Counted from the stretch's first letter, positions 724 to 63,407 are shown. The stretch: 64,000 nucleotides of DNA from an uncultured Actinomycetota bacterium (GCA_963784055.1 CAWAPY010000014.1:395634-459633); one strand, 5' to 3'. Numbers and translations: made by a program. Notes: generated by a model from the sequence alone, not told the origin.

Positions 724-795
724 GCCGTAGCCCTTCCTGGCCCGCGCCCGGCGCTCGACGCGCCTGAAGGCCCTCGGTGCCTCTATCGTGCTCGC

Positions 796-1507: not shown

Positions 1508-1534
1508 GCGACCACGTCTAGACTCGCCGCCTTC

Positions 1535-4281: not shown

Positions 4282-4352
4282 GGCATCTCCGTCTCGCCGC
4301 CCCGACGTATGCCATTGCGAAACGGCAGCGGCGATTGGCCAACCGTGGCCGC

Positions 4353-4369
4353 GATGTGATAGTCACATC
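4353..4369. promoter_or_regulatory. candidate operator: inverted repeat GATGTGA-tag-TCACATC upstream of the LIV operon
   Basis: Perfect 7-bp arms with a 3-nt centre, in a locally AT-richer intergenic stretch 34 nt upstream of the ATG at 4403. No protein partner can be assigned. Confidence 0.25.
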
Positions 4370-4402
4370 CAATCTCGGGAAACCGAGGAGAAGGGGGGCT
4401 TC

Positions 4403-5719: not shown

Positions 5720-5739
5720 CGATCAACGAACCACGGCGG

Positions 5740-5780
5740 AGGGGCCGCGGGCCGAGCCGAGAGGCTCGCCCGTGGCCCCT
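5740..5780 (+). terminator. strong GC-rich stem-loop between the binding-protein gene and livH (attenuator/terminator-like; no U-tract)
   Basis: AGGGGCCGCGGGCCGAGCC-gaga-GGCTCGCCCGTGGCCCCT forms about 19 bp, with one G-U pair and one bulge. It starts 21 nt after the stop at 5719. Confidence 0.35.
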
Positions 5781-5824
5781 TCCCTGAGAGGGGGGAAACC
5801 CTGGCGGGCACCGAGGCCCCGCAC

Positions 5825-6904
5825 GTGGCGGTCGCTCAGCTCGGCCGCTTCGAGCGACTGCCGTGGCGGCGCATCATCCTCGTCGTCCTGGCGATCGTCG
5901 TCGGCGGCGTGGTCGTCCTCGGCACGTGGCGCACCCTCGGACTCGACCGGGCCGAGGGCGGATACTCGGCCGGCGCGTGGCGCGACTTCATCGTGCAAGG
6001 GGCGGCGCAGGGCGCGATCTTCGCGATGATCGCGCTCGGCTACAGCCTCGTCTACGGGATCCTCCGGATGATCAACTTCGCCCACGGCGAAGTCTTCATG
6101 GCCGGTGCCTTCGGATCGTTCTTCTTCGCCGACGCCTACGCCAAGAGCGGCTTCCTGAACCGGAGCCCCCTGATCGCGCTGGCCATCGTGACCATCGTCG
6201 CCGTGGGCATCTCCGTGGGGACGGCGGTCCTGCTGGAGCGGCTCGCGTACCGTCCCCTCCGGAACGCGCCACGACTCGTCCCCCTTATCACCGCGATCGG
6301 TGCCTCGCTCTTCCTGCAGAACGCGTTCCGCGGGTTCTTCGGCCCGCAGCCGTACGGCTACCCCAAGCCAACCGTGCTGGCCGGCAACGTCACGGTCCTG
6401 GGGGTGCCGGTCCAACGCACGCAGCTGCTCGTGCTCGTCGTCGCGCTGATCTGCATGATCGCCCTGCAATGGTTCGTGGCGACGACGCGGACCGGGCGGT
6501 CGATGCGCGCGGTCGCCCAGGATCGGGAGATCGCCAGTCTGATGGGCATCAACGTGGACCGCGTGATCGTCGTCACGTTCGCGATCGGTGGAGTCCTGGC
6601 GGGGATCGCCGGCGTGCTGTTCTCGCTCACCTTCGAGCAGGTGCAATTCACGATGGGCTTCCGGCCGGGGATCGCGGCGTTCACCGCCGCCGTCCTCGGG
6701 GGCATCGGCAGCATCGGCGGCGCTGCCCTCGGCGGGTTCGTGATCGGCTTGCTCCAGGCTGTCGGACCGCCCTTGATCCTCACGGGGTTCGGGATCCCGA
6801 GCGTGTTCTCGTTGCGGGACGCGTTCGTGTTCCTCGTCCTCGTCCTCGTCCTGGTGTTCCGCCCGGGAGGTCTGCTCGGCACCGGCGAGGCGGAGAAGGT
6901 GTGA
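5825..6904 (+). CDS. livH: branched-chain amino-acid ABC transporter permease
   Basis: Intact 359-aa ORF. It carries GAAQGAIFAMIALGYSLVYGILRMINFAHGEVFM and MRAVAQDREIASLMGINVDRV (LivH signatures) and has multiple TM segments. Confidence 0.9.
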   Translation: MAVAQLGRFERLPWRRIILVVLAIVVGGVVVLGTWRTLGLDRAEGGYSAGAWRDFIVQGAAQGAIFAMIALGYSLVYGILRMINFAHGEVFMAGAFGSFFFADAYAKSGFLNRSPLIALAIVTIVAVGISVGTAVLLERLAYRPLRNAPRLVPLITAIGASLFLQNAFRGFFGPQPYGYPKPTVLAGNVTVLGVPVQRTQLLVLVVALICMIALQWFVATTRTGRSMRAVAQDREIASLMGINVDRVIVVTFAIGGVLAGIAGVLFSLTFEQVQFTMGFRPGIAAFTAAVLGGIGSIGGAALGGFVIGLLQAVGPPLILTGFGIPSVFSLRDAFVFLVLVLVLVFRPGGLLGTGEAEKV

Positions 6905-8685
6905 TGGCGGCGCGACGCTGGGCTCGCACCGGGGCGCTCGCCGGCATCGTCACGATCTTCCTCGCCCTCGTCGGCCTGATCGGGGGCTTCACCGACGTGT
7001 TCCTGATCGGCGACGAGATCACCTTCGCCGGCGTGATGTTGCTCCTTCCCGCGTTCATCGCGGGGTTCGTGGCCGCCGCGCCCCGGATCGAGGGCGGCGA
7101 GCGACGCGAGATGCCGCTGGGGGAGGCGGCCGCCGCGGCGGCCGTCGCCGCGGCGTCCGCCGGCGTCGTGTTCGCCCTCGCGGTGCTCTTCGTGGACCTC
7201 ATCGGGGACCAGCGCATCCGTCCGATCTTCCTGAACGTGTCGCCGAGCCTGATGGAGTTCGTCGCCTTCGGGCAGTCGACGGTGGTCGGCGCCGTGATCC
7301 TCGTCGCCCTCTCGACCCTGGCGGGTGTGGTCGGTGGCCTCCTCCGCGTGGCCCCGCCGGTCGTCCGCCGCTCGGTCACCGCGGCCGTGATGGTGACGCT
7401 CCTGTTCGGTTTCCTCCAGCGGGTGATCCCGATCGCGCTCGACCAGCTGTCGCTGGAGCGCGACTGGCTGTACCACCCGATCCACGACGGACTGACCTGG
7501 GCGGGCGCCGCCGTCGTGGCCGCCGTCAGCGCGGGTGTGAGCCTCCTGAACGCGCGGTACGGCGGGCGTGTGCGCGGGAGCCTCTCGTCGGGCATCGGCG
7601 GTCGGAGCGGGCCGGCGATGAGCCCGGTCCGGCTGATCGCGAGCGTGGCCGCCGTCGCCCTCCTGATCGCCGCCCCGCTCCTGCTCGGATCGGTGATCTC
7701 CGAGGTCCTCGGGACGGTGATGGTGTTCGCGCTCCTGGGGATCGGCCTGAACATCGTCGTCGGGTACGCGGGCCTGCTGGACCTCGGGTACGTGTTCTTC
7801 TTCGCGCTCGGCGCCTACTCCCTCGCGCTGCTCACCGGCGCGACCCTGAACGCCTACGGGATCTCGCCCGAGCCTGCGATCTCGGGCGACCTGAACTTCT
7901 ACGTGGCGATCCCGATCGTGATGCTGATCGCGGCGGCGGCAGGGGTGCTCGTCGGCGCCCCGGTGCTCCGGCTGCGGGGGGACTACCTGGCGCTGGTGAC
8001 ACTGGGCCTGGGCGAGATGGTGACCGTGCTCGTAGGGAGCCCCTGGCTCGTCCCGCTCGTGGGTGGCCCGAGCGGGATGCGCGGGATCACGGATGCCGCG
8101 ATCGGGGGACTGGCGTTCCGCGACCCCCAGCGCTTCTACTACCTCGCCCTCGCGTTCGTCGCGCTCGCCGCGTTCCTGTCGTGGCGACTGGCGACCTCGC
8201 GGATCGGGCGGGCATGGACGGCGATGCGCGAGGACGAGCAGACCGCCGACGCGATGGGGATCAGCACGACCCGCTTCAAGCTGCTCGCGTTCGCGATCGG
8301 CGGCGCGATCGGCTCGCTCGGTGGAGCCCTCTTCGCCGTGAAGATCGGGTCGCTGACACCGGCGAGCTTCCAGGTGATCGTGTCGATCCAGGTGCTGGGC
8401 CTGGTGATCCTGGGCGGTCTGGGGAGCATCCCCGGCGTGCTCGTCGGCGCGCTCGTGCTGGTGGGTCTGCCGGGACTGCTGCGGGAGTTCGAGGAGTACC
8501 GCTTCCTCGCGTATGGTGCCGCCGTCGTTGCCGTGATGGTCTTGCGGCCGCAGGGCCTGGTCCCGAACGTGCGCCGGAGCCGGGAGCTCCAGGACGAGGA
8601 ACGCGCCCAGGACGAATGGGCGAAAGCGGTGGAGGAAGGGGAGACCCCCGGCGAGCTCGGCCCCGCGGCGGAGGTGACGACGTGA
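6904..8685 (+). CDS. livM: branched-chain amino-acid ABC transporter permease with a ~250-aa N-terminal membrane extension
   Basis: The ATG at 6904 overlaps the livH stop (GTGATG). The C-terminal half carries LNIVVGYAGLLDLGYVFFFALGAYS and MREDEQTADAMGISTTRFKLLAFAIGGAIGSLGGALF (LivM signatures). The N-terminal half is hydrophobic and unrecognised. Confidence 0.88.
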   Translation: MAARRWARTGALAGIVTIFLALVGLIGGFTDVFLIGDEITFAGVMLLLPAFIAGFVAAAPRIEGGERREMPLGEAAAAAAVAAASAGVVFALAVLFVDLIGDQRIRPIFLNVSPSLMEFVAFGQSTVVGAVILVALSTLAGVVGGLLRVAPPVVRRSVTAAVMVTLLFGFLQRVIPIALDQLSLERDWLYHPIHDGLTWAGAAVVAAVSAGVSLLNARYGGRVRGSLSSGIGGRSGPAMSPVRLIASVAAVALLIAAPLLLGSVISEVLGTVMVFALLGIGLNIVVGYAGLLDLGYVFFFALGAYSLALLTGATLNAYGISPEPAISGDLNFYVAIPIVMLIAAAAGVLVGAPVLRLRGDYLALVTLGLGEMVTVLVGSPWLVPLVGGPSGMRGITDAAIGGLAFRDPQRFYYLALAFVALAAFLSWRLATSRIGRAWTAMREDEQTADAMGISTTRFKLLAFAIGGAIGSLGGALFAVKIGSLTPASFQVIVSIQVLGLVILGGLGSIPGVLVGALVLVGLPGLLREFEEYRFLAYGAAVVAVMVLRPQGLVPNVRRSRELQDEERAQDEWAKAVEEGETPGELGPAAEVTT

Positions 8686-9491
8686 GCGAGGCGGTCCGGC
8701 CCCGGAGCCCGGAGGCCGTGATGGAGGTCCGCGGTCTCGAGAAGCACTTCGGAGGCCTCTACGCGCTCTCCGGCCTGGACATGGAGGTGCGCCGCGGCGA
8801 GATCGTGTCCGTGATCGGACCCAACGGCGCCGGGAAGAGCACACTCTTCAACGTGATCACCGGCATCTACGAGCCCGATGCCGGCGACATCCTGTACCAG
8901 GGCTCGAGCATCGTGGGGCTGCGGCCCCATCAGGTCGTGAAGCTCGGGATCGCGAGGACGTTCCAGAACGTCCGGCTCTTCGCGAACATGACGATCCTCG
9001 AGAACGCGATGGTGGGCCAGCACTGCCGGAGCAAGGGCGGCGTCTTCGGATCGATCGTCCGCACACCCGGGATCCGCGCGGAGGAGGCGCGGATCCGGCA
9101 GCGCGCCGAGGAGGCCCTCGCGTTCTTCGGCAAGCGCCTGTCCGGGTACCGCCTGGAGCAACCCGCGTTCTCCCTCTCCTACGCGAATCGACGCCGGCTG
9201 GAGATGGCCCGGGCGATGGCGACCGACCCCCAGGTGCTGCTCCTGGACGAGCCCACGGCAGGCATGAACCCACGGGAGACGCTCGAGCTCCGCGATCACA
9301 TCGTGCGCATGCGCGACGAGCTCGGGCTCACGGTGATCGTGATCGAGCACGACATGCGGGTCGTCAAAGGCGTGTCGGACCGCGTGGTGGCCTGCGACTA
9401 CGGGGAGAAGATCGCGGAAGGGACCTACGAGGAGGTCGCGAACGACGAACGCGTGATCGAGGCGTACCTGGGCACGAAGGCGGCGGGATGA
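8682..9491 (+). CDS. livG: branched-chain amino-acid ABC transporter ATP-binding protein
   Basis: The GTG at 8682 overlaps the livM stop (GTGA). It carries LEKHFGGLYALSGLDMEVRRGEIVSVIGPNGAGKSTLFNVITG (Walker A), LSYANRRRLEMARAMATDPQVLLLDEPTAGMNP and EAYLG. An alternative start is the ATG at 8721. Confidence 0.9.
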   Translation: MSEAVRPRSPEAVMEVRGLEKHFGGLYALSGLDMEVRRGEIVSVIGPNGAGKSTLFNVITGIYEPDAGDILYQGSSIVGLRPHQVVKLGIARTFQNVRLFANMTILENAMVGQHCRSKGGVFGSIVRTPGIRAEEARIRQRAEEALAFFGKRLSGYRLEQPAFSLSYANRRRLEMARAMATDPQVLLLDEPTAGMNPRETLELRDHIVRMRDELGLTVIVIEHDMRVVKGVSDRVVACDYGEKIAEGTYEEVANDERVIEAYLGTKAAG

Positions 9492-10237
9492 GCGAGCACG
9501 CCGCGCCCGCGGTCGATGGTCGTACGCCGATCCTCGAGCTCCGGAACGTCTCGACCCACTACGGCTTGGTGGCGGTGCTCCGAGACGTCGACATGGACAT
9601 CTACGCGGGCGAGATGGTCTGCCTGCTGGGGGGCAACGCGAGCGGGAAGACCACCACGCTGAAGACGATCCTCGGGTACGTGACGCCCTCGCAGGGAGAG
9701 GTGATCCTCGATGGCGAGGTCGTGTCGGGCCTGTCGACGACCGAGGTGGTCCGAAGGGGCGTCTCGATGGTCCCCGAGAACCGCCGGCTGTTCCCCGACA
9801 TGACCGTCGAGGAGAACCTCCGTCTCGGGTCGTACCTCCGACGGGACCGCCAGGCCGTGGAGGAGGCCCACGAAACGGTGTTCGAGACGTTCCCGCGGGT
9901 TCGCGAGCGGCTGAAGCAGAAGGCGGGCACGCTCTCGGGCGGGGAGCAGCAGATGGTGGCGATGGGACGCGCGCTGATGGCCGACCCCAAGGTCCTACTC
10001 ATGGACGAGCCCTCGATGGGACTCGCGCCGATCCTCGTCGAGCAGGTCTTCGAGATCATCAAGAAGATCCGCGAGCTCGGGAAGACCGTCTTCATCGTGG
10101 AACAGAACGCCAACATGGCCCTGTCGATCGCCGATCGCGGCTACGTGATCCAGACGGGACAGGTGGTGCTGGCGGACACGGCCGAGAACCTGTTGCAGAA
10201 CCCGTTGATGCGCGAGGCCTACCTCGGTGAGCTTTGA
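9488..10237 (+). CDS. livF: branched-chain amino-acid ABC transporter ATP-binding protein
   Basis: Intact 249-aa ORF. It carries LLGGNASGKTTTLKTILG, LSGGEQQMVAMGRALMADPKVLLMDEPSMGLAP and REAYLG, and overlaps the livG stop (ATGA). Confidence 0.9.
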   Translation: MSEHAAPAVDGRTPILELRNVSTHYGLVAVLRDVDMDIYAGEMVCLLGGNASGKTTTLKTILGYVTPSQGEVILDGEVVSGLSTTEVVRRGVSMVPENRRLFPDMTVEENLRLGSYLRRDRQAVEEAHETVFETFPRVRERLKQKAGTLSGGEQQMVAMGRALMADPKVLLMDEPSMGLAPILVEQVFEIIKKIRELGKTVFIVEQNANMALSIADRGYVIQTGQVVLADTAENLLQNPLMREAYLGEL

Positions 10238-11181
10238 GAGCTCTAGGGGTGAGCTCTGAGCTGCGACTGATCGGCGCGGAGGAGCTCCGCGCCCGGCTCC
10301 CGATGGTCGCCGCGATCGACGCCCTCGAGACGGCGTTCCGCACGCTCGATCCGGGAACCGGCCCGCTCCGCACCAGCCTCGAGACGCCGGCCGGGTCGCT
10401 CCTGGTGATGCCGGCGTTCGGCGAGGCGGGGGTCGGCGTGAAGCTGGTCACGCTGACGCCGTCCAACCCCGGGCGCGGGCTCCCCTACATCCAGGCCGGC
10501 TACGTGCTGTTCGACACCGTCACGCAGTCACCGGAGGCCGTCCTCGACGGGACGGCGCTCACCGCGCTCCGAACGGCGGCGGTCTCGGGGCTGGCCACCC
10601 GGCACCTCGCGCGGGAGGACGCGGCGCGGCTCGTGGTGTTCGGGGCGGGCGTACAGGCTCGAGCGCACCTCGAGGCGATGTGCGCCGTCCGCCCGGTGCA
10701 CGAGCTCGTCGTCGTCTCGCGATCGCGCGGTCCGGCGGAGTCCCTCGTGGAGGCCGGTCTCGAGCGGGGACTCGCGGCGCGACTGGGCGAGCCGGGGTCG
10801 GTCGCCGAGGCGGACGTGATCTGCACGTGCACGACCTCCGAGGAGCCGCTGTTCGACGGGTCGCTGCTCACGCCAGGGGTCCACGTGAACGCGGTCGGAT
10901 CCCACCGCCCCGACGCGAGGGAGCTCGACACCGAGACCGTGCGGCGGGGGAGGGTCGTGGTCGAGACCCGGGACGTGGCACTCGCCGAGGCGGGCGAGCT
11001 GGCGATCCCGATCGCCGATGGGGCGATCGAGGCGGGGCACGTGGTGGCCGACCTCGCGGAGGCCGTCCGGGGAGCCGAGGTCCGACGCTCGACCGAGGAC
11101 CTGACCGTCTTCAAGAGCGTGGGGATGGCGTTCGAGGACCTGGTCGTCGCTCGCGCGATCGTCGACGCCCCGCCACCCTGA
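10234..11181 (+). CDS. ornithine cyclodeaminase / mu-crystallin family protein
   Basis: Intact 315-aa ORF. It carries VKLVTLTPSNP, LDGTALTALRTAAVSGLATRHLAR, the Rossmann motif VVFGAGVQARAHLEAM, and HVNAVGSHRPDARELD. Confidence 0.85.
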   Translation: MRALGVSSELRLIGAEELRARLPMVAAIDALETAFRTLDPGTGPLRTSLETPAGSLLVMPAFGEAGVGVKLVTLTPSNPGRGLPYIQAGYVLFDTVTQSPEAVLDGTALTALRTAAVSGLATRHLAREDAARLVVFGAGVQARAHLEAMCAVRPVHELVVVSRSRGPAESLVEAGLERGLAARLGEPGSVAEADVICTCTTSEEPLFDGSLLTPGVHVNAVGSHRPDARELDTETVRRGRVVVETRDVALAEAGELAIPIADGAIEAGHVVADLAEAVRGAEVRRSTEDLTVFKSVGMAFEDLVVARAIVDAPPP

Positions 11182-11249
11182 TCGAAGCGGCGATCGCAGA
11201 CGACGATCCGAGGCGATGGAGGAGGTGGACGGGACGGGCGGGTGGGTCC

Positions 11250-11336
11250 TGGTGCCGGGAGAGGGGGTCGAACCCTCACGGGCCGAAGCCCACGGGTTTT
11301 TGAGACCCGCGCGTCTGCCTGTTCCGCCATCCCGGC
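11250..11336 (-). tRNA. tRNA-Leu(CAA)
   Basis: The reverse complement folds as a class-II tRNA. The acceptor stem is GCCGGGA/TCCCGGC. The anticodon stem CGGGT/ACCCG carries loop CTCAAAA (anticodon CAA). There is a long variable arm, a T-arm GAGGG-TTCGACC-CCCTC, and an encoded CCA. Confidence 0.9.
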
Positions 11337-11398
11337 CGGGGCGGTCTAGGGTAGCGGGCCGGCGGACCCGAGCGAACCGGAGGATCCGAGCGAGCCTG

Positions 11399-12517
11399 GT
11401 GACGCTGCTCGCGCTGTCGATCCCCGCGTGCACACAGGGGGCTCCGCCCAGGTCGGACTCCTCCCAGCCCACGATCGCGTACCTGTTCGACGGGTCGCCC
11501 CCCGACGCCGAGCTCGTGAGCGCGTCGGCCGAGGCGGGCTTGGAGCTCGCGGCGGACGAGGCCGGCACCGTCGAGATCGAGCCCGTGAACCTGGGCCTCG
11601 ACCCCCCGGAGGTGATGAGCGCACTGCGGGCTCTCGGGGAGGACCGCGACGTCATCGCCGCCGTCATCGCCCCGTGGACGGCACCCCCGGCCGGAGCGGC
11701 AGACCTGCTGGCGGCGCAGGGCCTGCCGGTCGTCTCGCTCTCGTGGGCGTGGGGTCCGCCGTCCGAGACAGGCGGGGTCTGGCTCTCGCTGGTGGCGGGG
11801 CAGGCATCCGAGGCCGTGCTCCTGCTCTCGACGGCCGACGTGGCTCCGGAGGGCGTGTCGCTGTGCGTGGCCGGCGACGAGCATCCGACCAGCCGCGCCC
11901 TGCTCACCACGGCCGAGGAGCTTGGCCGAGCGGCGGGTGACCCGGACGTCGCGATGGTCGGTGTGATCACCGAAGGAGATGCGGCGATCACCGACGCGGT
12001 CGCCGATCGGATCGAGAGCTCGCGCTGCTCGGTCCTCGCGTGGACGGGCGGGACGTCGGGAGCGGGGGCGGTGCTCTCCCGGCTGCCGGAGGCTCCGGCG
12101 CTCGTGGTCGGCACCTCGAGGATCGGGACGGACGAGGGGCTGGCGCTCGCCACCGCCGATCGTGACGTGATCACCTCGTGCGCATGTGTGAGCATCGACC
12201 TGTCCCTGGAGCCGGAGCACATGCGATTCGTGCACGATCTCCAGGCCGCGAGCGGCGCTCCACCCGGTCCGTACGCGGTCGAGGCCTACGACGCCGGCCG
12301 GTTCCTGCTGAGCCTCGTCACCGGCGCCGGCGGCGACGATCTGCGGGAGGTGCTGGCGGCCGCGCTCGAGGATCCGGCCGAGATCCCCGGGCTCGCGGGT
12401 GACTACCGCTTCGAGCCGGACGGATCGCGGGCACCCGACACCCTCCGGGTGGGCACGTGGCGTGCCGCGGGCTCTCGCTGGCTCCCGGTCGAACGGCGCA
12501 CCGACGCACCGGCCTGA
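11399..12517 (+). CDS. putative solute-binding lipoprotein (type-1 periplasmic-binding-protein-like)
   Basis: The ORF frame 11216..12517 runs through the tRNA, so the plausible start is the GTG at 11399, giving VTLLALSIPAC (a lipobox). The body is only weakly LivK-like (TIAYLFDG..., VIAPWTAPPA, AYDAGRFLLSL). The start is uncertain. Confidence 0.55.
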   Translation: MTLLALSIPACTQGAPPRSDSSQPTIAYLFDGSPPDAELVSASAEAGLELAADEAGTVEIEPVNLGLDPPEVMSALRALGEDRDVIAAVIAPWTAPPAGAADLLAAQGLPVVSLSWAWGPPSETGGVWLSLVAGQASEAVLLLSTADVAPEGVSLCVAGDEHPTSRALLTTAEELGRAAGDPDVAMVGVITEGDAAITDAVADRIESSRCSVLAWTGGTSGAGAVLSRLPEAPALVVGTSRIGTDEGLALATADRDVITSCACVSIDLSLEPEHMRFVHDLQAASGAPPGPYAVEAYDAGRFLLSLVTGAGGDDLREVLAAALEDPAEIPGLAGDYRFEPDGSRAPDTLRVGTWRAAGSRWLPVERRTDAPA

Positions 12518-55032: not shown

Positions 55033-55122
55033 GTCGGAGTGGCGGAACTTGGTAGACGCGCTAGGTTGAGGGCCTAGTCCCCTTCACAGGGGGTGGGGGT
55101 TCAAATCCCCCCTCCGACACCA
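55033..55122 (+). tRNA. tRNA-Leu(GAG)
   Basis: The acceptor stem is GTCGGAG/CTCCGAC. The anticodon stem CTAGG/CCTAG carries loop TTGAGGG (anticodon GAG). The long variable arm is CCCCT-TCAC-AGGGG, the T-arm is GGGGG-TTCAAAT-CCCCC, and the discriminator A plus CCA are encoded. Confidence 0.9.
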
Positions 55123-56531
55123 CGAAACTGCCACCCCCCAGTCAGTCCGACCTCCTCGAGCGCGACGTTCAGCCGTGGCACGCCGCTCACCGTGACCTCC
55201 AGGTGGTCCGGGTACATGGCGACGGACTCCAGCAGCTCCTCGACGAGGACGCGGCGCTCGAGGTCGGTGGCCTCTGCCCAGAGTCGCTCGACATCCATCT
55301 CCCGGAGGATGCGGGCAACCTCTTCGAACTTGGCGGCCAAGTCCGACAACCGGCTCCGCTCGACCTGGCGCTCCTCTTGGTCGCGACGGACGGCCTGGAT
55401 CTGGCCGCTCAGTCGGGCCTCCTCCTCGGCGAAGATCTCCGCGCTCAGCTTGTCGGCGTAGTAGAGCTCGAGGAGCTTCCGCCGTCGCTCGGCCAGGTCC
55501 TCGATCCGAAGGGTCTTCCCGCGGCCTCGGCGAGGCTCGCCCGCTCCGGAACCGACGGCATTCTTCAGCTCGCGACGGATGGCCTCTTGCAGCTCCTCAT
55601 CCTCGGCGACGAGACGCAGCCCGAGGAGTGCAGCGTGGATCAGTCCTACCGCCGAGCGGGACGGCTGGGAGCAACCTGCGCCCCGGTGCCGGCATCGGTA
55701 CAGAGCGCGTCCCTCGCGCCCGTACCGGATCGTCGCCACGCGACCGCACAGGCCGCACCGCACTCGTCCGGCGAGGACGTGGCGGCTCCGCCTGTGCCAG
55801 GGAGGAGCACCTCTGTGCGCGGCCGCGAACGCCGTCGCGCTGATTAGCGGCTCGTGGTTGCCCGGGTACCACTCACCGTTGAGGAGCACCTCCCCGAGAT
55901 AGATGCGGGAGTGCGCGATCGCCCGGGCCGTGGAGTACTTCACGCCGGTGAGCTCCTCGATCCGGGTGTAGCTGAGACCCTGCGCACGAAGGTCGAAGAT
56001 CCTCCGGACGGTGGGCCCGTCGGCGTTGGGGACCAGCTCGCCGGCGACGAGGTCGTAGCCGAACTTCGGTCGGTTCGTCCACTTGCCCTGACGCGCGGCC
56101 TGGTGCATGCCGAGGCGGACGTTCTCCGCGAGCTGCTCCCGATAGAACTGCGCGAATGCCCCGAGGATGTTGTAGAACATGCGCCCCGTGGCCGAGGAGA
56201 GATCGAGCTTCTCGGTGAAGGAGTGCAGACCCACCTCATGCTTGCCGAGTGTGTCCGCCAGCAGGATCAGGTCACCCAGGTTCCTGGACAGCCGATCCAG
56301 GCGCCACACGAAGACGTTGGATACGTGTCCCTGCTCCACCATCGCGAGGAGCTGTTGGAGGCCGGGCCGCTCGAGGTTCTTGCCCGACCGGCCGGGGTCC
56401 TGGATGACGGTTACGGGTCCGAGGTCGTTGAGCTGCGCATAGGTCCGGAGCTTCTCGGCCTGTCCGTCGATGGAGAAACCCTCGGCCGCCTGCTCCTCGG
56501 TCGAGACCCGGCAGTACGCGACGTTCAACAT
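55101..56531 (-). CDS. large serine recombinase (integrase)
   Basis: Intact 476-aa ORF. The catalytic N-terminus is MLNVAYCRVSTEEQ...VFVWRLDRLSRN. It has a recombinase domain, a zinc-ribbon (RCGLCGR...YRCRHRGAGC) and a C-terminal coiled-coil. Its last 7 codons and stop lie inside the tRNA-Leu(GAG) T-arm and acceptor. Confidence 0.9.
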   Translation of the reverse strand: MLNVAYCRVSTEEQAAEGFSIDGQAEKLRTYAQLNDLGPVTVIQDPGRSGKNLERPGLQQLLAMVEQGHVSNVFVWRLDRLSRNLGDLILLADTLGKHEVGLHSFTEKLDLSSATGRMFYNILGAFAQFYREQLAENVRLGMHQAARQGKWTNRPKFGYDLVAGELVPNADGPTVRRIFDLRAQGLSYTRIEELTGVKYSTARAIAHSRIYLGEVLLNGEWYPGNHEPLISATAFAAAHRGAPPWHRRSRHVLAGRVRCGLCGRVATIRYGREGRALYRCRHRGAGCSQPSRSAVGLIHAALLGLRLVAEDEELQEAIRRELKNAVGSGAGEPRRGRGKTLRIEDLAERRRKLLELYYADKLSAEIFAEEEARLSGQIQAVRRDQEERQVERSRLSDLAAKFEEVARILREMDVERLWAEATDLERRVLVEELLESVAMYPDHLEVTVSGVPRLNVALEEVGLTGGWQFRGVGGGI

Positions 56532-56753: not shown

Positions 56754-57701
56754 TCAAGGGGCATGTCGGGGCGGCACCGCCATGAAACGCGGCGTGGTCG
56801 AGGCGGGGGAGATGCGACGGCGGTGGCCGGCATCGATGAAGTATCGACCGAGGCACCTTGTCGGTCGGTACAGGTCGCGGGGTTGGGCCGGCAGCTCAAA
56901 GAGCGAGATGCGCCCGGCGTCGGTAGGCAGGTGTTGCCACACCGGCCCGAGCACGCCGAACTCGGTCAGGTGCTCCTCGCTCGCCACGTACACGGGCAGC
57001 GACATCGCGAGCGAGTCACGGGCATGGAAAGTCCCGATCGCGTGGCGAAGGGCCGAGCCGACCTCCCCCTCGCGCACCCCCTCCGGAACGATGATGAGGA
57101 GATTCGGAAGCCCGAGAAGGTCTTGCTCCTTCGTCCACCCCGCCGCGAGCCTGAGGTAGCCCTCGAGCTTGCGGGAGAGCGCGCCGAACGCCTCGGTGCC
57201 CCGGTCGTACTCCAGGTAGAACTCGCATGCCCCACCGGAGTGCAGGTATCGCCCGAACCCGTCGAGCTTGACCTCGGCGGCCCTGGTGCGAACCCAGTGC
57301 TCCGGCCGCCAGGTGGTCAGGCAGTGGTCCTTGTGGAACCTGGAGGCCTCGGCGAGCGCACAGAAGAACGCGTTGACCCCGAGCCGGTGGGCGAGGTTCT
57401 GACTCCCTCGGTAGCTCTCATCGGGGATCCAGGAGAGGTCCGAGGCCCGGACACCCTTGGCCTCGGCGATCGCGACGAGACCGGTCTTCGTCAGGAACCA
57501 GCACGCCGGAGGCCTCCCCTCCCCGAAACCCCTCCCCACCGTGAACGATGAGACCAACCCAAGTTCCTTCAGTTCCTTCATCCGGTGTTGGCACCGTCTG
57601 AAGGAACGGAAGTAGAGGCTCTTGATCTGGTGAGTGGAAAGGACCTTGTGTTCGAGAAGGCTGAGCAGGAGAGCATGGTCTCGCTCATCGAGCGAGACCA
57701 T
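56754..57701 (-). CDS. replication-relaxation (Replic_Relax) family protein
   Basis: The internal ATG at 57701 gives 316 aa. They begin MVSLDERDHALLLSLLEHKVLSTHQIKSLYFRSFRRCQHRMKELKELGLVSSF...ACWFLTKTGLVAIAE, the winged-helix N-terminal pattern I associate with this actinobacterial plasmid/integrative-element family. The long ORF upstream of that ATG is Arg-rich and implausible. Confidence 0.7.
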   Translation of the reverse strand: MVSLDERDHALLLSLLEHKVLSTHQIKSLYFRSFRRCQHRMKELKELGLVSSFTVGRGFGEGRPPACWFLTKTGLVAIAEAKGVRASDLSWIPDESYRGSQNLAHRLGVNAFFCALAEASRFHKDHCLTTWRPEHWVRTRAAEVKLDGFGRYLHSGGACEFYLEYDRGTEAFGALSRKLEGYLRLAAGWTKEQDLLGLPNLLIIVPEGVREGEVGSALRHAIGTFHARDSLAMSLPVYVASEEHLTEFGVLGPVWQHLPTDAGRISLFELPAQPRDLYRPTRCLGRYFIDAGHRRRISPASTTPRFMAVPPRHAP

Positions 57702-57703
57702 GC
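57673..57703. repeat. 31-bp perfect palindrome (14-bp arms, 3-nt centre) spanning the Replic_Relax start codon
   Basis: The sequence is GCATGGTCTCGCTC-atc-GAGCGAGACCATGC. The arms are exact reverse complements, and each arm contains an ATG. Confidence 0.9.
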
Positions 57704-58926
57704 GAACGTTCCTTCTGCTCGAACCATATTCTGGGCACAGCCCTCCCCCTCCTTCGGTGGGTGGCCTTCGGCCAAACAGCCCCGTGACCTGCGGCTTTGC
57801 GTCCTCGCGCCCTGCGCTCTCGCGCCGCCCATGCGCCGTTGGCGCGGGAACCACCCGTCCCTTGGACGTGCGTGAGCTCGTGCCAAGGCGCGCGGCCGCA
57901 ACCTGCAGCCTTCCGTGGCTGTTCAGTTCGTGCCGGTGCTCACCTCCTTGTGCTCGCCGCGCTGGCATGCTCCGGCAGGCGTTCGGCCGGGATCGCATCC
58001 CGCCACACCGACTGCGTTCGCGCCGCCTCAGCCTCACCCCGCCTCTGCAGGCGTTTGGTCTCCGTCGGCCGCGGTCCCTCCGTCGCGCGCTTGACCTCCT
58101 CCATCTCCGAGCTCGCCTCCCATGAGGTGCCCGGGTTGGGGGCTCCGGCGCTCCCGTCGGCTCTCGGCCTCGAAGCCCTTGCGTCCGCCTTGGCGATCGC
58201 GAGGACACGGCGTCTCCGCACCGGCCGGCGTTGGCGATTCCTGCCTCCGCAGCCCACGGCAACCTGCTGGCATAACCAAGTGCCGAGACGTGGCCATCTC
58301 TACCCGTACAAAGGCATAGAAGAGGCTCCAATCGTGTCGGCGAGGAGGGGCGAGTTGATGAGGAGCTTTCGGGGAGTCCAGGTGAGGAAGCGTCGTTCGG
58401 ACCGGAGTCGCGCCTTCGGGTAGATGTGGGCGAGACACACCGTGCGATTGATAGAACGTCCCCGCTCGAGATCGCGCGGCGGGACGATGGGAGGAGTGGT
58501 GTGGCGAAGGTGCGAGTGAGCTAGAGCTGTAGCCCGAATTTCCTTCTTGACGCAATTTGCAGAGCCGAGGGACACTCCATCTGACAGGGAAGTGGCCGTC
58601 GAGCGAAGCATGACGAGCGATTCGGGGGCTGCAATGGGGCTGTCCGCTGTGACCATCGATGCCTTCGATCTGTGTGGGTCCGCGCTACGGGTGTCTTGGT
58701 TGCCTCGACGTTCAGCGGCTCGGTCTGCAATCCCTCGAGCCTGCGAGCGGCTGTCCGATTCTCTGCACCCGACAACCACGGACGTGCGTGTTTCGGCGGG
58801 TCGAATGCCGCGTCGATTCCGTTCCAGTGGCTCTGTTAGCGGTTGGGGGACTCTGAGCGTTACGGCTGCAGCCAAGATGGCGGGCATGGGCGCATTCGCA
58901 GCCTGCGGGGGTCCACGGAGGTGACG

Positions 58927-59562
58927 ATGCAGGCTTTGGAGCCGACCGCATACGCCGCCACCATCGCCCGGATGACCGTTGGGGTCGTTCTGATCTTCGC
59001 CGCGCTGTCGAAGGCAGTGGCGATGGATTCGTTCTCGCGTGCCCTTCTAACCTTCCCTGTGACGAAGCAAGCACTTCGAGGGGTGCACTCGGCCCGAGTT
59101 GCGGCGCGGGTGCTTGTGTTGCTGGAGTGCACCCTGGGATCTCTCTTCCTGATTGGCCTATTCATTCGACCCATTCAGTTCCTGATTCTTGTTCTCATGG
59201 CGGGGTTCACGCTCGGGCTCGCCTTAGCGGTGGCGAGTGACGAGGAGACACCGTGCGGCTGTTTCGGTGAAGGGAGCTCGAAACCAGTCACATGGGTCAG
59301 TCTTGCAAGGAACTTCGGGCTTCTTGTGCTTGTCGCAATCGCAGGGCTGAAGACCGAGCTATCTGTGGACGGTCTGATCGCCGCGGCGGCTCCCGAAGTC
59401 GCTGTCGGTTTGCTCGTCACGGATGCGTTGGTAGCGGGATTGACGGTATCGCTGTTGCGTTCCTACGCGCGGCTCCGCTCCAATCCGAGTTTCGTCCAGC
59501 GTGTCCCCGCAGCGCCGGGCCCGGCGCAGAGCGATGTGTGGGAGGGGAGCCGAGAGGTATAG
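58927..59562 (+). CDS. MauE-family membrane protein
   Basis: The ATG at 58927 has GGAGG 6 nt upstream. The 211 aa have 4-5 TM segments, with ETPCGCFGEGS (the CxCFG motif) after the third helix, as in methylamine-utilisation protein MauE. Confidence 0.78.
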   Translation: MQALEPTAYAATIARMTVGVVLIFAALSKAVAMDSFSRALLTFPVTKQALRGVHSARVAARVLVLLECTLGSLFLIGLFIRPIQFLILVLMAGFTLGLALAVASDEETPCGCFGEGSSKPVTWVSLARNFGLLVLVAIAGLKTELSVDGLIAAAAPEVAVGLLVTDALVAGLTVSLLRSYARLRSNPSFVQRVPAAPGPAQSDVWEGSREV

Positions 59563-59564
59563 CG

Positions 59565-60173
59565 ATGTCGGGACTCTGGCTTGCATCGCACGTCCTGCTT
59601 TGGGTTCTTGTGGTTGTGGAGGCCATTCTTCTGATCGCACTGATGCGCCAGGTCGGGACGCTCTTGCTTCGAGTCGGAACGTCGACGGCATTCGACGCTG
59701 GCGGCGGACCCGCGATCGGAGCGGAAGCGCCCTGGGTGCCATTGGAGGCAGGTGACGTTGATGGTGGAACGGATGGCCGGGCTACGATGCTGGTCTTTGT
59801 GTCTCTCGGCTGTGGCATGTGTGACATTCTCGCGCCCGGACTAAGCACTATCGCATCGGCCTACGCGGCATCGTCTCGCGTGTACGCAATCGGTAAGGAG
59901 GGAACGGACTCGCTTGATGCTTGGGCTCGAAACAAGCGGGTACGAGTCCCAGTCCTTTCCCAACCGGACGCGTTTGACGCATACAGCGTGTCAGGAACAC
60001 CGTACGCCTTCGTCATTGATGCCGATGGCGTCGTCCGGGCTAGCGGAGGCGTGAACACCACGGATCAACTGGAGGTTCTTCTCCGCCAGTGCACGAACAC
60101 GGGGAGTCTCTCGTCCGATCGACGAGAGATCCATGCTGTGGCGCGGGGGTTGGATAGAGGAGATCTGTCGTGA
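59565..60173 (+). CDS. MauD-like membrane-anchored thioredoxin-fold protein (CxxC)
   Basis: It starts 2 nt after the previous stop. The N-terminal TM helix plus RQVG (LWLASHVLLWVLVVVEAILLIALMRQVGTLLLRV) resembles MauD. The thioredoxin-like domain carries MLVFVSLGCGMCDIL and GTPYAFVIDADGVV. Confidence 0.78.
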   Translation: MSGLWLASHVLLWVLVVVEAILLIALMRQVGTLLLRVGTSTAFDAGGGPAIGAEAPWVPLEAGDVDGGTDGRATMLVFVSLGCGMCDILAPGLSTIASAYAASSRVYAIGKEGTDSLDAWARNKRVRVPVLSQPDAFDAYSVSGTPYAFVIDADGVVRASGGVNTTDQLEVLLRQCTNTGSLSSDRREIHAVARGLDRGDLS

Positions 60174-60718
60174 GGGACAAGGCGCTCGACGAACTGCTGC
60201 CGTCATCGAACCTAGGGTCTGCCGGAGACGCCTTCGTCGCGCGGTCGCTCTCCTCCTTCGCGAACCGGACGTCGAGAAGAAGTTTCATCGCAGGAGTTGG
60301 CCGCGCCGGCCTCGCAGTCATGGGTGGCGCCTTCCTCTCGCTGTGGCGCATGGAGAGCGCGGCATCGGTTGACTGCGGCGTCGGACATCCAACAACTGCG
60401 CGGTTGAGTTGCCTCTGCACCGACCTGCTCGGGTCAAACAACTGCCCGCAGTGTTGTGGGGGATACTGGACTGTTTGTCAAACGAGCGGCCCGCATACGT
60501 GCCCGTCGCCGTGCGGCGGGGGCGAAACACGGTACTTCAGGACCCGGCTGTACGACTGCTGCAACGCATGCACCAACTGCCAAAACAATGTCGCAGGGTG
60601 CCAGGGTGGAAATGATACGTGCTGCCACGGCGGATACTGCTTCGACAACTGTGGCAATCGAAATGTGAGATGTGTGAGAAAGGTATGCACGAACTCCCTG
60701 TGCATACCCTGCTCTTGA
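60170..60718 (+). CDS. Tat-signal, cysteine-rich secreted protein; possible divergent methylamine-dehydrogenase light-chain (MauA) relative
   Basis: The GTG overlaps the MauD-like stop (GTGA). The leader is long and has a twin-arginine motif NRTSRRSFIAGVGRAGLAVMGG. All 22 Cys lie in the last 114 aa (Cys69 to Cys181). Local strings resemble MauA as I remember it: CLCTDLLGSNNCP, YWTVC, LYDCCN and GYCFD. The ORF call is solid (about 0.9); the family assignment is tentative (about 0.5). Confidence 0.7.
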   Translation: MRDKALDELLPSSNLGSAGDAFVARSLSSFANRTSRRSFIAGVGRAGLAVMGGAFLSLWRMESAASVDCGVGHPTTARLSCLCTDLLGSNNCPQCCGGYWTVCQTSGPHTCPSPCGGGETRYFRTRLYDCCNACTNCQNNVAGCQGGNDTCCHGGYCFDNCGNRNVRCVRKVCTNSLCIPCS

Positions 60719-60800: not shown

Positions 60801-61412
60801 ATGGTGGGAACCATCGGCTTTGCCGGCGGCAAAGCAAGGACGCAGAGGAAGGTCTTTCGGTTTGCGCGACGCATCGCGCTTCCGTACGCGCTGGCATCTA
60901 TCGCCGGTGGGGCGATCCTTGGGCTCGCTGCAGCTCTGGTAGGCGGCTTGGCGCTGCACCAACTTGGTGGTGCGGAGGTTGAGACGTCGGTTGTCGCGTC
61001 CGTCCTGGCCGTTGCCGGCGCTGCGGATGCGTTTGGCATATCGGTCAAGCGGTTTTCTCGTCGAAGGCAGGTGCCGCTGTCTTGGAAACACGTCTTCCCA
61101 CCTCCGATGAGCGCAACGCTCTATGGATTCACGCTTGGGGTTGGGGTAGTAACGGCAATCTACTATTGGAGCTTCCTCGCGTTTCTCGTCGCCGTCGCCG
61201 TGACGGCGAATCCTGCCTTGGGGGTGACCGCCGGCATCGCCTTCAGCCTCGGCCGAGCGGCGTTGTCGCTCCTCGCGGTGGCAGCTCGTGATGAGTGGGT
61301 GATTGACAGGTGGTCAGATCGAATCGAAGGCGTGCTCTCTCGCAACAGATGGTTTCCGCGGCTCGTGAGCGCAACGGCGATGTGGGCGGCGGCGTGGGTG
61401 ATCATCGCTTAG
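60801..61412 (+). CDS. polytopic membrane protein of unknown family (5-6 TM, no Cys)
   Basis: The 203-aa ORF is co-directional, starting 82 nt after the Cys-rich gene. Its hydrophobic segments are ALASIAGGAILGLAAALVGGLAL, VVASVLAVAGAADAFGI, LYGFTLGVGVVTAIYYWSFLAFLVAVAV, GVTAGIAFSLGRAALSLLAVA and LVSATAMWAAAWVIIA. No motif is recognised, and the start is uncertain. Confidence 0.55.
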   Translation: MVGTIGFAGGKARTQRKVFRFARRIALPYALASIAGGAILGLAAALVGGLALHQLGGAEVETSVVASVLAVAGAADAFGISVKRFSRRRQVPLSWKHVFPPPMSATLYGFTLGVGVVTAIYYWSFLAFLVAVAVTANPALGVTAGIAFSLGRAALSLLAVAARDEWVIDRWSDRIEGVLSRNRWFPRLVSATAMWAAAWVIIA

Positions 61413-61488
61413 GCCCGGTGGCGGATTCTCACGCCAACGTCTGTTCGGCTCTGGGAGAGAGTAAGCATTCCGGCGCGCTGAGGCGTCT

Positions 61489-62083
61489 ATGAGGGTGTTG
61501 ACCTTGCCCAAGGATCTGTCGGATGGCGAGAGGACGTTCGAGGTCTTCTACGCCGAACACTTCGAACAGGTTGCCCGCGTGGCATTTCCCCTGGTGGACT
61601 CGAGAGAGGAGGCGTTCGACATCACCCAGGAAGCGTTTCTGCGGACCTGGGCGCAGTGGTCCCGGTTGGGCGCGAGTCGATCGAGATCCCTGGCGTTTCA
61701 CGATGCGGGTTGCCATCAACCTCGCCACCAGTCGGCTCCGACGCGTTCTCCGGTTCCGACACAGGATTCCGCGGCTGCTCACTCAGGAACAAAGCCCCTC
61801 CGCTGAGGACGTTGCGACCACTCGCATGGAAGTCATCGAGGCGCTAAGGGGGCTGTCACCACGCCAGCGGGTGGCCGTCGTCCTGTGCGAAGGTCTTGGC
61901 CTCAGCTCCGCCGAGGCAGCATCGCTGTTGAAGATCTCCGACACCACTCTGAGGGTCCACCTGGCCCGGGGGCGCGAGAGGCTGAGACGGGCATACGGAC
62001 CAGACGATGACGCTTCGCGCGACGAGCAAAGAACGGCCCACGAGGATTCGATCGGGAGGCCAAAGGATGCCAACAGGAGATGA
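61489..62083 (+). CDS. ECF-type sigma-70 family RNA polymerase sigma factor (one apparent frameshift ~61665)
   Basis: Region 2 is FEVFYAEHFEQVARVAFPLVDSREEAFDITQEAFLRTWAQWSRL, then (second frame) RDPWRFTMRVAINLATSRLRR. Region 4 is ALRGLSPRQRVAVVLCEGLGLSSAEAASLLKISDTTLRVHLARGRERLRRAY. Confidence 0.85.
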
Positions 62084-63407
62084 ATCGAGATTCGGCCAAG
62101 AGCTAAGAGATCGCCTCGCAAGGACAAGCTTCGAGGACGATCTTGCTGACCTCCGAGAGCGCCGGAATCGACGAAGGACCGCAAGCCGAACAGCCGCAGC
62201 CACGGTCGCATTGCTCGTGTCGGTCGGGGCCGGCGTGCTCGTATGGGATGCGTTCCGCCCTCTCGGAGGCGGGAATGAGCGGCGTGAAAGCATTGCGACG
62301 CCAGGCCCGGAAGTCGCGGCCGCTGGAACAGTTCCGGAGGGCCGGTTGGTAGTCCGAACCGGATCAGAGCTCGCGCTCGTTGCGTCGGGCCGGAGCCAGG
62401 CGACGCGGCTCGCATCTGCGGATCCTCTGGAGTACACCATGTCGCCCGACGGGACCACCGTGGCGGGGAGGTTGGCTCGCCGAGAGGACTCGGGGCTGTT
62501 TCGGCCGTTCGCTCTCGAGCTGATAGACGCGAGCACCGGGCAGCGCGAGGTCCTTACGGAAGCCGGACCTCAAGAGGCATTCGGTCTTGTTATCTGGTCA
62601 CCCGACGGCCAACGCCTTGCCTACATCCGCGGCGAATGGGGCCGCGATGTCACGCACGGAGCGTTCCCGGGAGGAGAGCCAAGAGTACAGCACCCCTGTG
62701 TCATCGCGGTCGATGGCGCTTCCAGCACTTGCTATCCGGAACTGGACCCGGTACTTTCAATCGCCTGGTCCCCCGATGGAGGTTCCCTGTGGCTGGGATC
62801 GGGATTCTCCATCCGGGTTCTCGACGTCGCTACGGGAGCCGTGTCGACAGCGGTGCCGGAAAACGGCGGGCCCGAGGTGCTGAAGGCGCTTGAGCAGCTC
62901 GGATTCGCCGGTGTGGAGAGTGTCCAATTTGTTGACCCTGCGCCGTCCAGCAGCGGCGAGTTCGTCGCTGCTGTCGCCTTCTTCGAAACGACATCCGGCC
63001 GAAGCATGTCTGTTCCAATGATCTTCGACGCAGCCGACGGCTCACTGCGAGCAACGGGCATGGCGAACCCCGACCTCTCTCAGTCGGCTTGGTCGCCGAC
63101 GAAGGACATGTTCGCCTACTCGACGGGCGTCGTCGGCATTTCGCGGCCCGGTGACCCACCGCTGGGTGTGCGGGTGCTCGCGCCTTCTGGTGACGACCAG
63201 CTCTTGGTCTCGACTGCAGACATTCCGAACATCGAAGGGGAGAGCGACCCCTTCATCGTTCGTCTGAAATGGAGTCCGTCCGGTGAGTGGCTTGCCATCG
63301 GCGGCCGCGAGCAGATCACGATCGTGGGTGCTGCCGGGGAATCTGTACAGACAGTAGACCCGTTCGAGCCGTTTGAAGACAGCGAGTTGCTCGACTGGGG
63401 GAGGTAG
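62067..63407 (+). CDS. single-pass membrane protein with extracytoplasmic TolB/WD40-like beta-propeller (anti-sigma-like position)
   Basis: The ATG at 62067 follows GGGAGG and overlaps the sigma gene end. After about 40 cytoplasmic residues comes a TM helix TAAATVALLVSVGAGVLVW. Repeats then follow with MSPDG, WSPDGQRLAY, WSPDGGSLW, WSPTKDMFAY and WSPSGEWLA. No zinc-binding anti-sigma motif is present. An alternative start is 62007. Confidence 0.75.
   Translation: MPTGDESRFGQELRDRLARTSFEDDLADLRERRNRRRTASRTAAATVALLVSVGAGVLVWDAFRPLGGGNERRESIATPGPEVAAAGTVPEGRLVVRTGSELALVASGRSQATRLASADPLEYTMSPDGTTVAGRLARREDSGLFRPFALELIDASTGQREVLTEAGPQEAFGLVIWSPDGQRLAYIRGEWGRDVTHGAFPGGEPRVQHPCVIAVDGASSTCYPELDPVLSIAWSPDGGSLWLGSGFSIRVLDVATGAVSTAVPENGGPEVLKALEQLGFAGVESVQFVDPAPSSSGEFVAAVAFFETTSGRSMSVPMIFDAADGSLRATGMANPDLSQSAWSPTKDMFAYSTGVVGISRPGDPPLGVRVLAPSGDDQLLVSTADIPNIEGESDPFIVRLKWSPSGEWLAIGGREQITIVGAAGESVQTVDPFEPFEDSELLDWGR

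Follow-up and report, generated by a model that had tools for sequence, protein, structure and literature searches.

A mobile actinobacterial cassette of MauE, MauD-like and short MauF proteins that probably serves a cysteine-rich relative of methylamine dehydrogenase light chains

We describe a compact set of genes carried on 64,000 nucleotides (nt) of DNA from an uncultured Actinomycetota bacterium (GCA_963784055.1, CAWAPY010000014.1:395634-459633). This whole stretch is called the window below, and all coordinates are counted from its first letter. The cassette lies on the + strand and encodes a MauE-family membrane protein (gene 1), a MauD-like thioredoxin (gene 2), the precursor of a protein with 22 Cys residues (gene 3) and a shortened MauF homologue (gene 4). 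These are followed by genes for a sigma factor of the extracytoplasmic function (ECF) type (gene 5) and a membrane-anchored beta-propeller protein (gene 6). We consider it moderately likely that genes 1 to 4 represent the small-subunit maturation half of a methylamine dehydrogenase (MADH) gene cluster, detached from MauB, MauG and amicyanin, and that this half serves a diverged, secreted, disulfide-knotted cargo with the sensor propeller as its probable partner. The component families are known, and it is their combination and the substrate that are new.

The first three open reading frames (ORFs; Table 1) are tightly packed, with a 2-nt gap between genes 1 and 2 and a GTGA stop/start overlap between genes 2 and 3, which can be read directly as GGTATAGCGATGTCG and GTCGTGAGGG. 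The product of gene 1 matches the Pfam MauE model (PF07291) with 77.3 bits, relative to a cut-off of 27, and the alignment spans profile positions 2-126 of 128. Its similarity to MauE of Paracoccus denitrificans is also evident by direct comparison (E 2e-7) and in a separate tblastn search of the window (E 1e-6). Approximately five hydrophobic segments are present, and a CGCFG motif at residues 110-114 falls between the segments at 85-103 (transmembrane segment 3, or TM3) and 121-139 (TM4). This arrangement corresponds to the published definition of the MauE motif, in which CXC and F-G are located in the TM3-TM4 loop (bioRxiv 10.64898/2026.03.05.709764). The same study reports that MauE replaces DsbB in an Escherichia coli dsbB deletion strain by means of its CXC motif. 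From this analysis we regard gene 1 as a MauE whose CGC (residues 110-112) is the motif of a putative DsbB-like oxidase, the oxidase activity being taken from the literature.

Gene 2 encodes a protein with a single N-terminal transmembrane segment (residues 9-27) that ends in LIALMRQVG, and a CGMC motif is located at residue 83. A BLASTP comparison with P. denitrificans MauD yields 30% identity over 184 amino acids (aa) with E 3e-22, and the anchor motif LMRQVG is aligned; Pfam AhpC-TSA is matched with 31.9 bits. Because the score against the NCBIfam equivalog model TIGR02661 is 66.7 bits (alignment 3-177 of 189), below the cut-off of 188.6, we classify gene 2 as MauD-like and not as a MauD orthologue by the NCBI standard. 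The gene spacing, the MauE assignment with four to five transmembrane segments and CGCFG, and the MauD-like helix with CGMC had all been proposed in an initial annotation made by reading the DNA alone. Each of these proposals holds, the family assignments at the level of homology.

The membrane protein encoded after gene 3 was noted in that annotation and left unnamed, and it proves to be a MauF homologue. When P. denitrificans MauF is used as a tblastn query, the window is matched with 25% identity over 195 aa (E 4.8e-5), and a homologous gene at a related locus, L026, is matched with E 5.9e-11. Alignment by hhalign of five gene 4 family members with three MauF proteins gives a probability of 97.0% across 156 columns (E 8e-11). 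MauF itself is not represented by a model in Pfam or NCBIfam. Gene 4 corresponds approximately to MauF residues 99-255 and shares the motif RRxQVP...FP...LYG.xLG. Its product comprises 203 aa, compared with 277-291 aa for MauF, carries no Cys and is devoid of the N-terminal ~95 aa that bear WSPCGYSS; its own conserved N-terminus, MVGTIGFAG, starts at the equivalent of approximately MauF residue 80-100. Genetic work in Methylobacterium and Paracoccus established MauF, MauE and MauD as the accessory genes that the small subunit requires, and therefore the cassette contains what would be the small-subunit half of a mau cluster in complete form.

The presumed client of this machinery is the product of gene 3. 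As initially described, it carries the leader motif TSRRSFIAGVG and 22 Cys residues in its mature part, all of which reside in the last 115 residues. The leader is unusually long (D..VAR.L...ANRTSRRSF...GR). A relationship to MADH light chains, for which profile searches had been recommended, is only partly borne out by such searches. There is no Pfam or NCBIfam match at E <= 0.1, Me-amine-dh_L (PF02975) included, and comparison with PDB sequences returned nothing relevant by single sequence or by profile; the light chains in the PDB are without a leader. Profile-profile comparison and intermediate sequences, however, do reveal the relationship. With a reference alignment of light chains built from bona fide mau and aau clusters on plasmids, hhalign assigns the gene 3 family a probability of 95.5% when eight family sequences are used and 98.3% (E 2.5e-14) when 29 are used. 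The family hidden Markov model (HMM) gives true MauA sequences 34-46 bits, and P. denitrificans MauA matches the family member of locus L022 by tblastn with 30% identity over 133 aa (E 2.7e-7). Two intermediates, P0041 and P0042, which are the weakest matches to the family profile, exceed the Pfam Me-amine-dh_L threshold. Judging from these profiles, we assign gene 3 to the MADH light-chain superfamily, within which it forms a remote branch.

Several residues of the MADH beta chain can be mapped onto gene 3 by MAFFT, by HMM alignments through the intermediates and by hhalign of mature domains, and the three agree. By these methods, C83 corresponds to C36, C92-P93 to C46-P47, D129-C130-C131 to Asp76-Cys77-Cys78 and C168 to C121, and W100 probably corresponds to Trp57. 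All 29 sequences of the family have W100, D129 and C130, and at least 90% of them have C131. The column of beta-Trp108 is occupied by Tyr156 in gene 3 and mostly by Tyr, sometimes by Phe or Trp, across the family, and the equivalents of beta-Asp32, Tyr119 and Thr122 are not conserved. Without a Trp in the beta-Trp108 column, the tryptophan tryptophylquinone (TTQ) cofactor as it is known cannot form in this protein.

The catalytic half of the mau cluster is missing as well, in agreement with the earlier remark that no heavy subunit, MauG or amicyanin is in reach. A tblastn search of the window with all eleven P. denitrificans Mau proteins produced matches to E, D and F only, such that MauB, MauG, amicyanin (MauC), MauJ, MauM and MauN were not found, and the same six were also not found by tblastn in 13 related loci on contigs of up to 17.7 kb; of the host genome, the search covered the window only. 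No flavin monooxygenase of the QhpG/LodB type and no radical-SAM enzyme is present in any locus. Since the second TTQ tryptophan and other active-site residues are lacking, as are the heavy subunit and MauG in these loci, the product of gene 3 is no amine dehydrogenase subunit in the known sense, and it is unlikely to carry TTQ.

Representatives of the gene 3 family are rare. Only seven relatives were identified among 5.8 billion clustered proteins, and 35 were recovered by profile among 1.84 billion representatives. One locus, in an Actinomycetota metagenome-assembled genome, is found among 185,579 species genomes, a set that does not include the genome of the window, and four loci are found in JGI metagenomes. 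No paper describing the family was found. The order MauE, MauD, MauA-like protein, MauF-like protein, sigma factor and propeller recurs in L001/L025, L026, L027 and L022/L028, where the gene 3 homologues are 72%, 46%, 42% and 39% identical to that of the window, respectively. In L003/L004 (46% identity), the sigma-propeller pair lies inverted on the opposite side and yet is retained. Thus a survey of gene neighbourhoods, which had been suggested at the outset, locates the six-gene unit without mauB at approximately five independent metagenomic loci, on mobile DNA. More distant family members (P0014, P0026 and P0009) keep the E-D-A'(-F') arrangement. All longer contigs contain mobile-element genes (integrases, Replic_Relax and transposases), and L022 has the same layout as the window, in which a serine recombinase and Replic_Relax are followed by the six-gene module and then by host genes. 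This correspondence indicates that the module is the cargo of the element.

A related locus that includes a heavy chain provides a useful reference point. L018 (Logan SRR19962014, positions 684-3708, low in GC, the source of P0041) encodes in order a MauD, a light chain, an 80-aa ORF, a short MauF of 213 aa and a heavy chain. The light chain keeps both TTQ tryptophans and matches PF02975 weakly, and the heavy chain matches PF06433 (Me-amine-dh_H) with 22.7 bits. L018 thus shares with the window MauD, a protein resembling light chains and a short MauF with the pattern MxGTI...QVP, whereas both TTQ tryptophans and the heavy-chain gene are retained by L018 alone. Because the short MauF also occurs in this MADH-like cluster, that form is not restricted to the orphan cassette. 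In L018 the gene that follows the short MauF is the heavy-chain homologue, and this position is held in the window by the sigma factor and propeller genes.

The two genes at this position may form a sigma/anti-sigma pair. Sequences for sigma region 2 are in the frame of 61489, and those for region 4 are in the frame of 61523. Directly upstream is the motif AGTAAGC-N17-CGTCT, which occurs once in the window, is found in the same place in L001 (10394) and L029 (~156), and is present in part in L003 (3099, - strand). The -10-like CGTCT lies approximately 7 nt before a GTG, a spacing that suggests a candidate leaderless and possibly auto-regulated ECF promoter. Gene 6 overlaps the sigma stop codon and encodes a cytoplasmic N-terminus of ~40 aa, one transmembrane segment (residues 42-60) and a propeller with PD40/WD40 matches. 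The propeller had been noticed before, and its fusion to a putative anti-sigma N-terminus had been missed; that N-terminus yields a weak NCBIfam anti-sigma match only (E 0.0015). An AlphaFold2 model of the protein has a mean predicted local distance difference test (pLDDT) score of 77.9, with values >90 for most of the propeller, and displays about seven blades. Among PDB structures, Foldseek ranks the beta subunit of quinohaemoprotein amine dehydrogenase (QHNDH; 1jju_B) at the top (E 2.8e-10), and the heavy chain of aromatic amine dehydrogenase (AADH) appears at ranks 25 and 44; BLASTP finds nothing between the propeller and MauB.

With these characteristics in mind, we propose the following scheme. 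The gene 3 precursor would be exported by means of its long MauA-type leader with the twin-arginine motif. On the outer side of the membrane, MauE would use its CGC loop to act as an oxidase in the manner of DsbB and pass oxidizing equivalents from the quinone pool to MauD, and MauD, a tethered thioredoxin with CGMC, would install disulfides in the 115-residue mature domain, possibly as many as 11. The MauF-like protein may assist in an undefined way, probably in leader handling or in a step of export. The product would be a disulfide-knotted protein with a MADH light-chain core. We infer that the gene 6 propeller is its most likely partner because of the persistent sigma/anti-sigma linkage and because of its position, where related clusters have the heavy chain, and it could bind the Cys-rich protein in place of the MADH heavy-chain propeller. 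The two proteins might then operate as a secreted ligand and a membrane sensor that controls the sigma factor. In its most specific form, the idea is that the MADH light/heavy pair has been re-used as ligand and receptor, wherein the MauA-like protein, possibly with a modified Trp100, docks on the anti-sigma propeller and switches the ECF sigma factor of the mobile element, which this factor may control. We hold this version as speculative and rather unlikely in its details. If true, it would represent a new class of protein-based extracytoplasmic signalling derived from an enzyme scaffold, and the first defined dedicated substrate of MauE/MauD/MauF folding outside the amine dehydrogenases.

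Several observations weigh against the proposal of a detached maturation half that serves a light-chain relative with a propeller partner, and readers should take them into account. The profile-profile score between the gene 3 family and light chains derives mostly from the leader. When mature domains only are compared, hhalign gives 46% (E 2e-4) with canonical light chains and 87% when intermediates are included. Full-length hhalign places W100 differently from MAFFT, and for this reason the equivalence of W100 with Trp57 is probable and not certain. The structure prediction that had been recommended for gene 3 did not confirm the fold, given that the AlphaFold2 model from an eight-sequence alignment has a pLDDT of 36, and the fold assignment is drawn from sequence profiles only. 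As for the partner, propellers of TolB, bacterial WD40 proteins and S9 peptidases fall within approximately two-fold of the E-value of the QHNDH beta subunit, and hhalign of the gene 6 propeller with MauB reaches only 55%. Together with the BLASTP result, these comparisons neither support nor exclude a heavy-chain origin of the propeller, and the predicted structure would allow an amine-dehydrogenase-type partnership without singling it out. The sigma factor of the initial annotation is likewise upheld in part, in that regions 2 and 4 are both encoded, but a +1 frameshift caused by an extra C near 61678 interrupts the gene. Intact versions are present in L001 (185 aa) and L029 (192 aa; 94% identical DNA), and the extra C is also absent in L002; the window copy is either a pseudogene or the result of a sequencing or assembly error. 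The AGTAAGC motif occurs only before the sigma gene and was not found upstream of mauE, and the sigma factor is therefore no more than a candidate regulator of the cassette. A distant family locus, L016, is without a recognizable sigma factor.

Among other explanations, the Cys-rich protein could be a secreted disulfide-knotted effector (antimicrobial or bacteriocin-like, inhibitory, or active in adhesion or binding) that the MauE, MauD and MauF-like proteins only fold, while the sigma pair times expression or senses envelope stress and does not bind it. Residence of the module on mobile DNA in every locus seen, the twin-arginine export leader combined with 22 Cys, the very rare and patchy distribution of the family and the lack of a catalytic partner would all suit such a role. 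We nevertheless judge it unlikely, though worth keeping in view. An immunity gene, a dedicated transporter and a processing protease are all missing from the module, and no PADLOC or Pfam toxin family is matched. Moreover, a simple knottin-like scaffold does not explain why W100 and D129, which match the quinone tryptophan and the catalytic aspartate, are invariant in 29 very divergent sequences, and the sigma/propeller pair remains linked after the rearrangement in L003/L004. That same invariance speaks for the idea that gene 3 encodes the cofactor-bearing subunit of a new enzyme, in which W100 is converted to a quinone or enters a cross-link (Cys-Trp, as in cysteine tryptophylquinone, or CTQ, or Tyr-Trp) and the membrane-tethered propeller is a heavy-subunit analogue that couples catalysis to sigma release. 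Here the equivalents of beta-Trp57 and beta-Asp76-Cys77-Cys78 are counted as invariant, and the beta-Trp108 position is aromatic, with Tyr in most sequences and Trp in some. The roughly seven-bladed propeller with its QHNDH beta and AADH heavy-chain matches, and the heavy chain that follows the short MauF in L018, point in the same direction. However, the absence from every locus of MauG, of a flavin monooxygenase and of a radical-SAM enzyme, the loss of conservation at beta-Asp32, Tyr119 and Thr122, and the inability of Foldseek to separate amine-dehydrogenase propellers from TolB and WD40 propellers, together with the hhalign result for MauB, make this improbable.

The conventional explanation would be an ordinary MADH or AADH that has been split, such that gene 3 encodes a functional TTQ light chain and another part of the genome carries mauB, mauG and an electron acceptor. 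The E-D-A order and the conservation of the leader are what one would expect from such a system, and the search of the host genome covered the window only. We strongly disfavour it and consider its likelihood very small, because TTQ cannot form with no Trp at beta-Trp108, light-chain models in Pfam and NCBIfam are not matched, and 22 Cys are present compared with 12 in canonical light chains. In addition, small mobile elements of different hosts carry the module as a self-contained unit that has no B, G or C, and it is seen at one locus only among the 185,579 species genomes. The initial suggestion of a dedicated disulfide machinery for a secreted, light-chain-like protein that is not a standard light chain is the one that the evidence supports.

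Comparison with known systems helps to define what is retained and what is lost. The mau cluster mauFBEDACJGMN of P. denitrificans and Methylobacterium, along with the B-E-D-A clusters of AADH, shares with the cassette homologues of E, D, A and F, the E-D-A order and the tight coupling of genes. The same type of long leader (D..V....A..TSRRxF) and a common core, CxC...CP...W..C...Y.DCC, are also shared. In contrast, the cassette has no heavy subunit MauB, MauG, amicyanin or cytochrome, MauJ or MauMN. Its MauF is shortened and comes after A rather than before B, its MauD is far under the equivalog cut-off, and its host is a high-GC actinobacterium in which the genes are located on a mobile element. 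Canonical light chains form six disulfides from their 12 Cys, whereas gene 3, with its 22, fails the family models and is without beta-Trp108, Asp32, Tyr119 and Thr122.

QHNDH offers a different precedent. Its gamma subunit bears CTQ and is held inside a seven-bladed beta subunit. It combines a propeller with a small subunit that is Cys-rich and heavily cross-linked, and its beta subunit is the best structural match of gene 6. However, gene 3 has no sequence relation to the gamma subunit, the radical-SAM protein QhpD, QhpG, the peptidase and the haem subunit are not present here, and the Foldseek match is no better than those of TolB or WD40 propellers.

The oxidative folding pathway based on MauE described in a 2026 preprint by Gonzalez et al. 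(bioRxiv 10.64898/2026.03.05.709764) shares two features with the cassette, a CXC(FG) motif located between TM3 and TM4 of MauE and a thioredoxin-fold partner. In that report MauE is a generalist substitute for DsbB, whereas in the window MauE and MauD are in an operon with one hyper-Cys MauA-like substrate and a MauF-like protein, which suggests a dedicated rather than a housekeeping system. The same authors observe a recognizable MauA in only ~10% of species with MauE, leaving ~90% without one. Our findings imply that some orphan MauE/MauD pairs may still serve a cryptic relative of MauA that is invisible to current models, with MauF alongside. In that case MauE-D-(A)-F would be a maturation cassette that is portable, and the substrate that bears the leader could diverge radically. 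The module could also be useful as a natural minimal system, with four genes, one substrate and up to 11 disulfides, for the study of MauD and of the unexplained role of MauF, and as a test case for the role of the invariant Trp/Asp pair of the light-chain fold without TTQ. The link between an ECF sigma factor and a propeller anti-sigma protein on mobile DNA offers a testable signalling hypothesis. These matters are relevant to the fields of protein-derived cofactors and bacterial disulfide formation.

Another unusual arrangement was observed on the plasmid of Thermomicrobium roseum DSM 5159 (NC_011961, positions 1139-12473). Four matches resembling MADH light chains, two of them unannotated, lie there among paralogues of ~400-450 aa with transmembrane anchors. 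Next in the row are a MauE fusion of 596 aa, a thioredoxin with CPPC, a membrane protein that carries the MauF-type motif RQVP and a sigma-70/ECF gene. The T. roseum light chains are annotated as MADH light chains by PGAP and members of the window family are not. This is a parallel, non-canonical arrangement in a cultured and tractable organism.

Table 1. Features of the cassette and of the adjoining element, in window coordinates
Feature	Coordinates	Strand	Basis
tRNA-Leu(gag), left junction and integration site	55033-55122	+	ARAGORN; Rfam tRNA, 52.6 bits
Large serine recombinase (element integrase)	55101-56531	-	Pfam Resolvase (134 bits), Zn_ribbon_recom, Recombinase; NCBIfam CcrB/XisF-like
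Replic_Relax (replication-relaxation) protein	56754-57638	-	Pfam PF13814, 108 bits; 56% identity to L022 counterpart
Conserved non-coding stretch between Replic_Relax and mauE	57640-58300		79% identical to L022 DNA across ~840 nt
Gene 1, MauE-family membrane protein, putative DsbB-like disulfide generator	58927-59562	+	Pfam MauE
Gene 2, MauD-like membrane-anchored thioredoxin (CGMC)	59565-60173	+	BLASTP to MauD; TIGR02661 below threshold
Gene 3, precursor with twin-arginine leader and 22-Cys mature domain, remote MADH light-chain (MauA) superfamily	60170-60718	+	hhalign
Gene 4, membrane protein with ~4 transmembrane segments, shortened MauF homologue	60801-61412	+	tblastn, hhalign
Candidate ECF-type promoter	61460-61488	+	Putative; directly upstream of sigma gene
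Gene 5, ECF sigma factor, frameshifted	61489-62083	+	Pfam Sigma70_r2 and Sigma70_r4_2 in two frames
Gene 6, putative anti-sigma factor and sensor	62067-63407	+	446 aa; transmembrane segment and extracytoplasmic ~7-bladed beta-propeller

The GC content across 59-64 kb is 0.61-0.65, down from ~0.68-0.72. This drop and the adjoining tRNA-Leu, serine recombinase and Replic_Relax genes fit the view, already expressed in the initial annotation, that the six genes are the low-GC cargo of a small integrated element, here one inserted at tRNA-Leu. The mechanical ORF for Replic_Relax extends to 525 aa (56754-58331, - strand), which is ~230 Arg/Pro/Gly-rich codons too long, and the conserved protein begins near 57638 (MVSLDERDH...). 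The additional codons are an artefact of open frames in high-GC DNA. No attL/attR direct repeats are found within 54.9-64 kb, as is expected with a serine recombinase, and the right junction may lie beyond the end of the window. None of eight element proteins compared matches an anti-phage defence system in PADLOC.

The region upstream of mauE had been described as free of supportable ORFs, and indeed no conserved reading frame is present in the ~1.3 kb between 57639 and 58926. However, this region includes a conserved stretch. An aligned block extends from 57480 to 58300 in the window and from 7410 to 8239 in L022, the locus of the Actinomycetota metagenome-assembled genome, although identity between the flanking proteins is only 31-56%. 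The alignment of 57640-58300 exhibits numerous 1-2-nt indels, and the six frames score alike with none preferred, and therefore the stretch is conserved but non-coding. Its RNA folding z-scores are -2.7 (+ strand) and -4.0 (- strand). Rfam gives no match, and searches of plasmids, IMG/VR and the other loci yielded no further copies. Possible identities are an origin of replication or transfer, a large RNA or a segment that was exchanged recently.

The left flank of the element (ABC transporter, SecG and tRNA genes) is 81% identical in L023 (JGI 3300076630), where other DNA follows the tRNA. The regions compared are positions 272-1365 and 9746-11058 of that contig and 54000-55123 and 63477-63626 of the window. 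All that L023 contains of the module is a propeller gene in truncated form (70% identity, residues 103-446) together with its downstream sequence, an arrangement that suggests decay or replacement of the element at the tRNA-Leu site.

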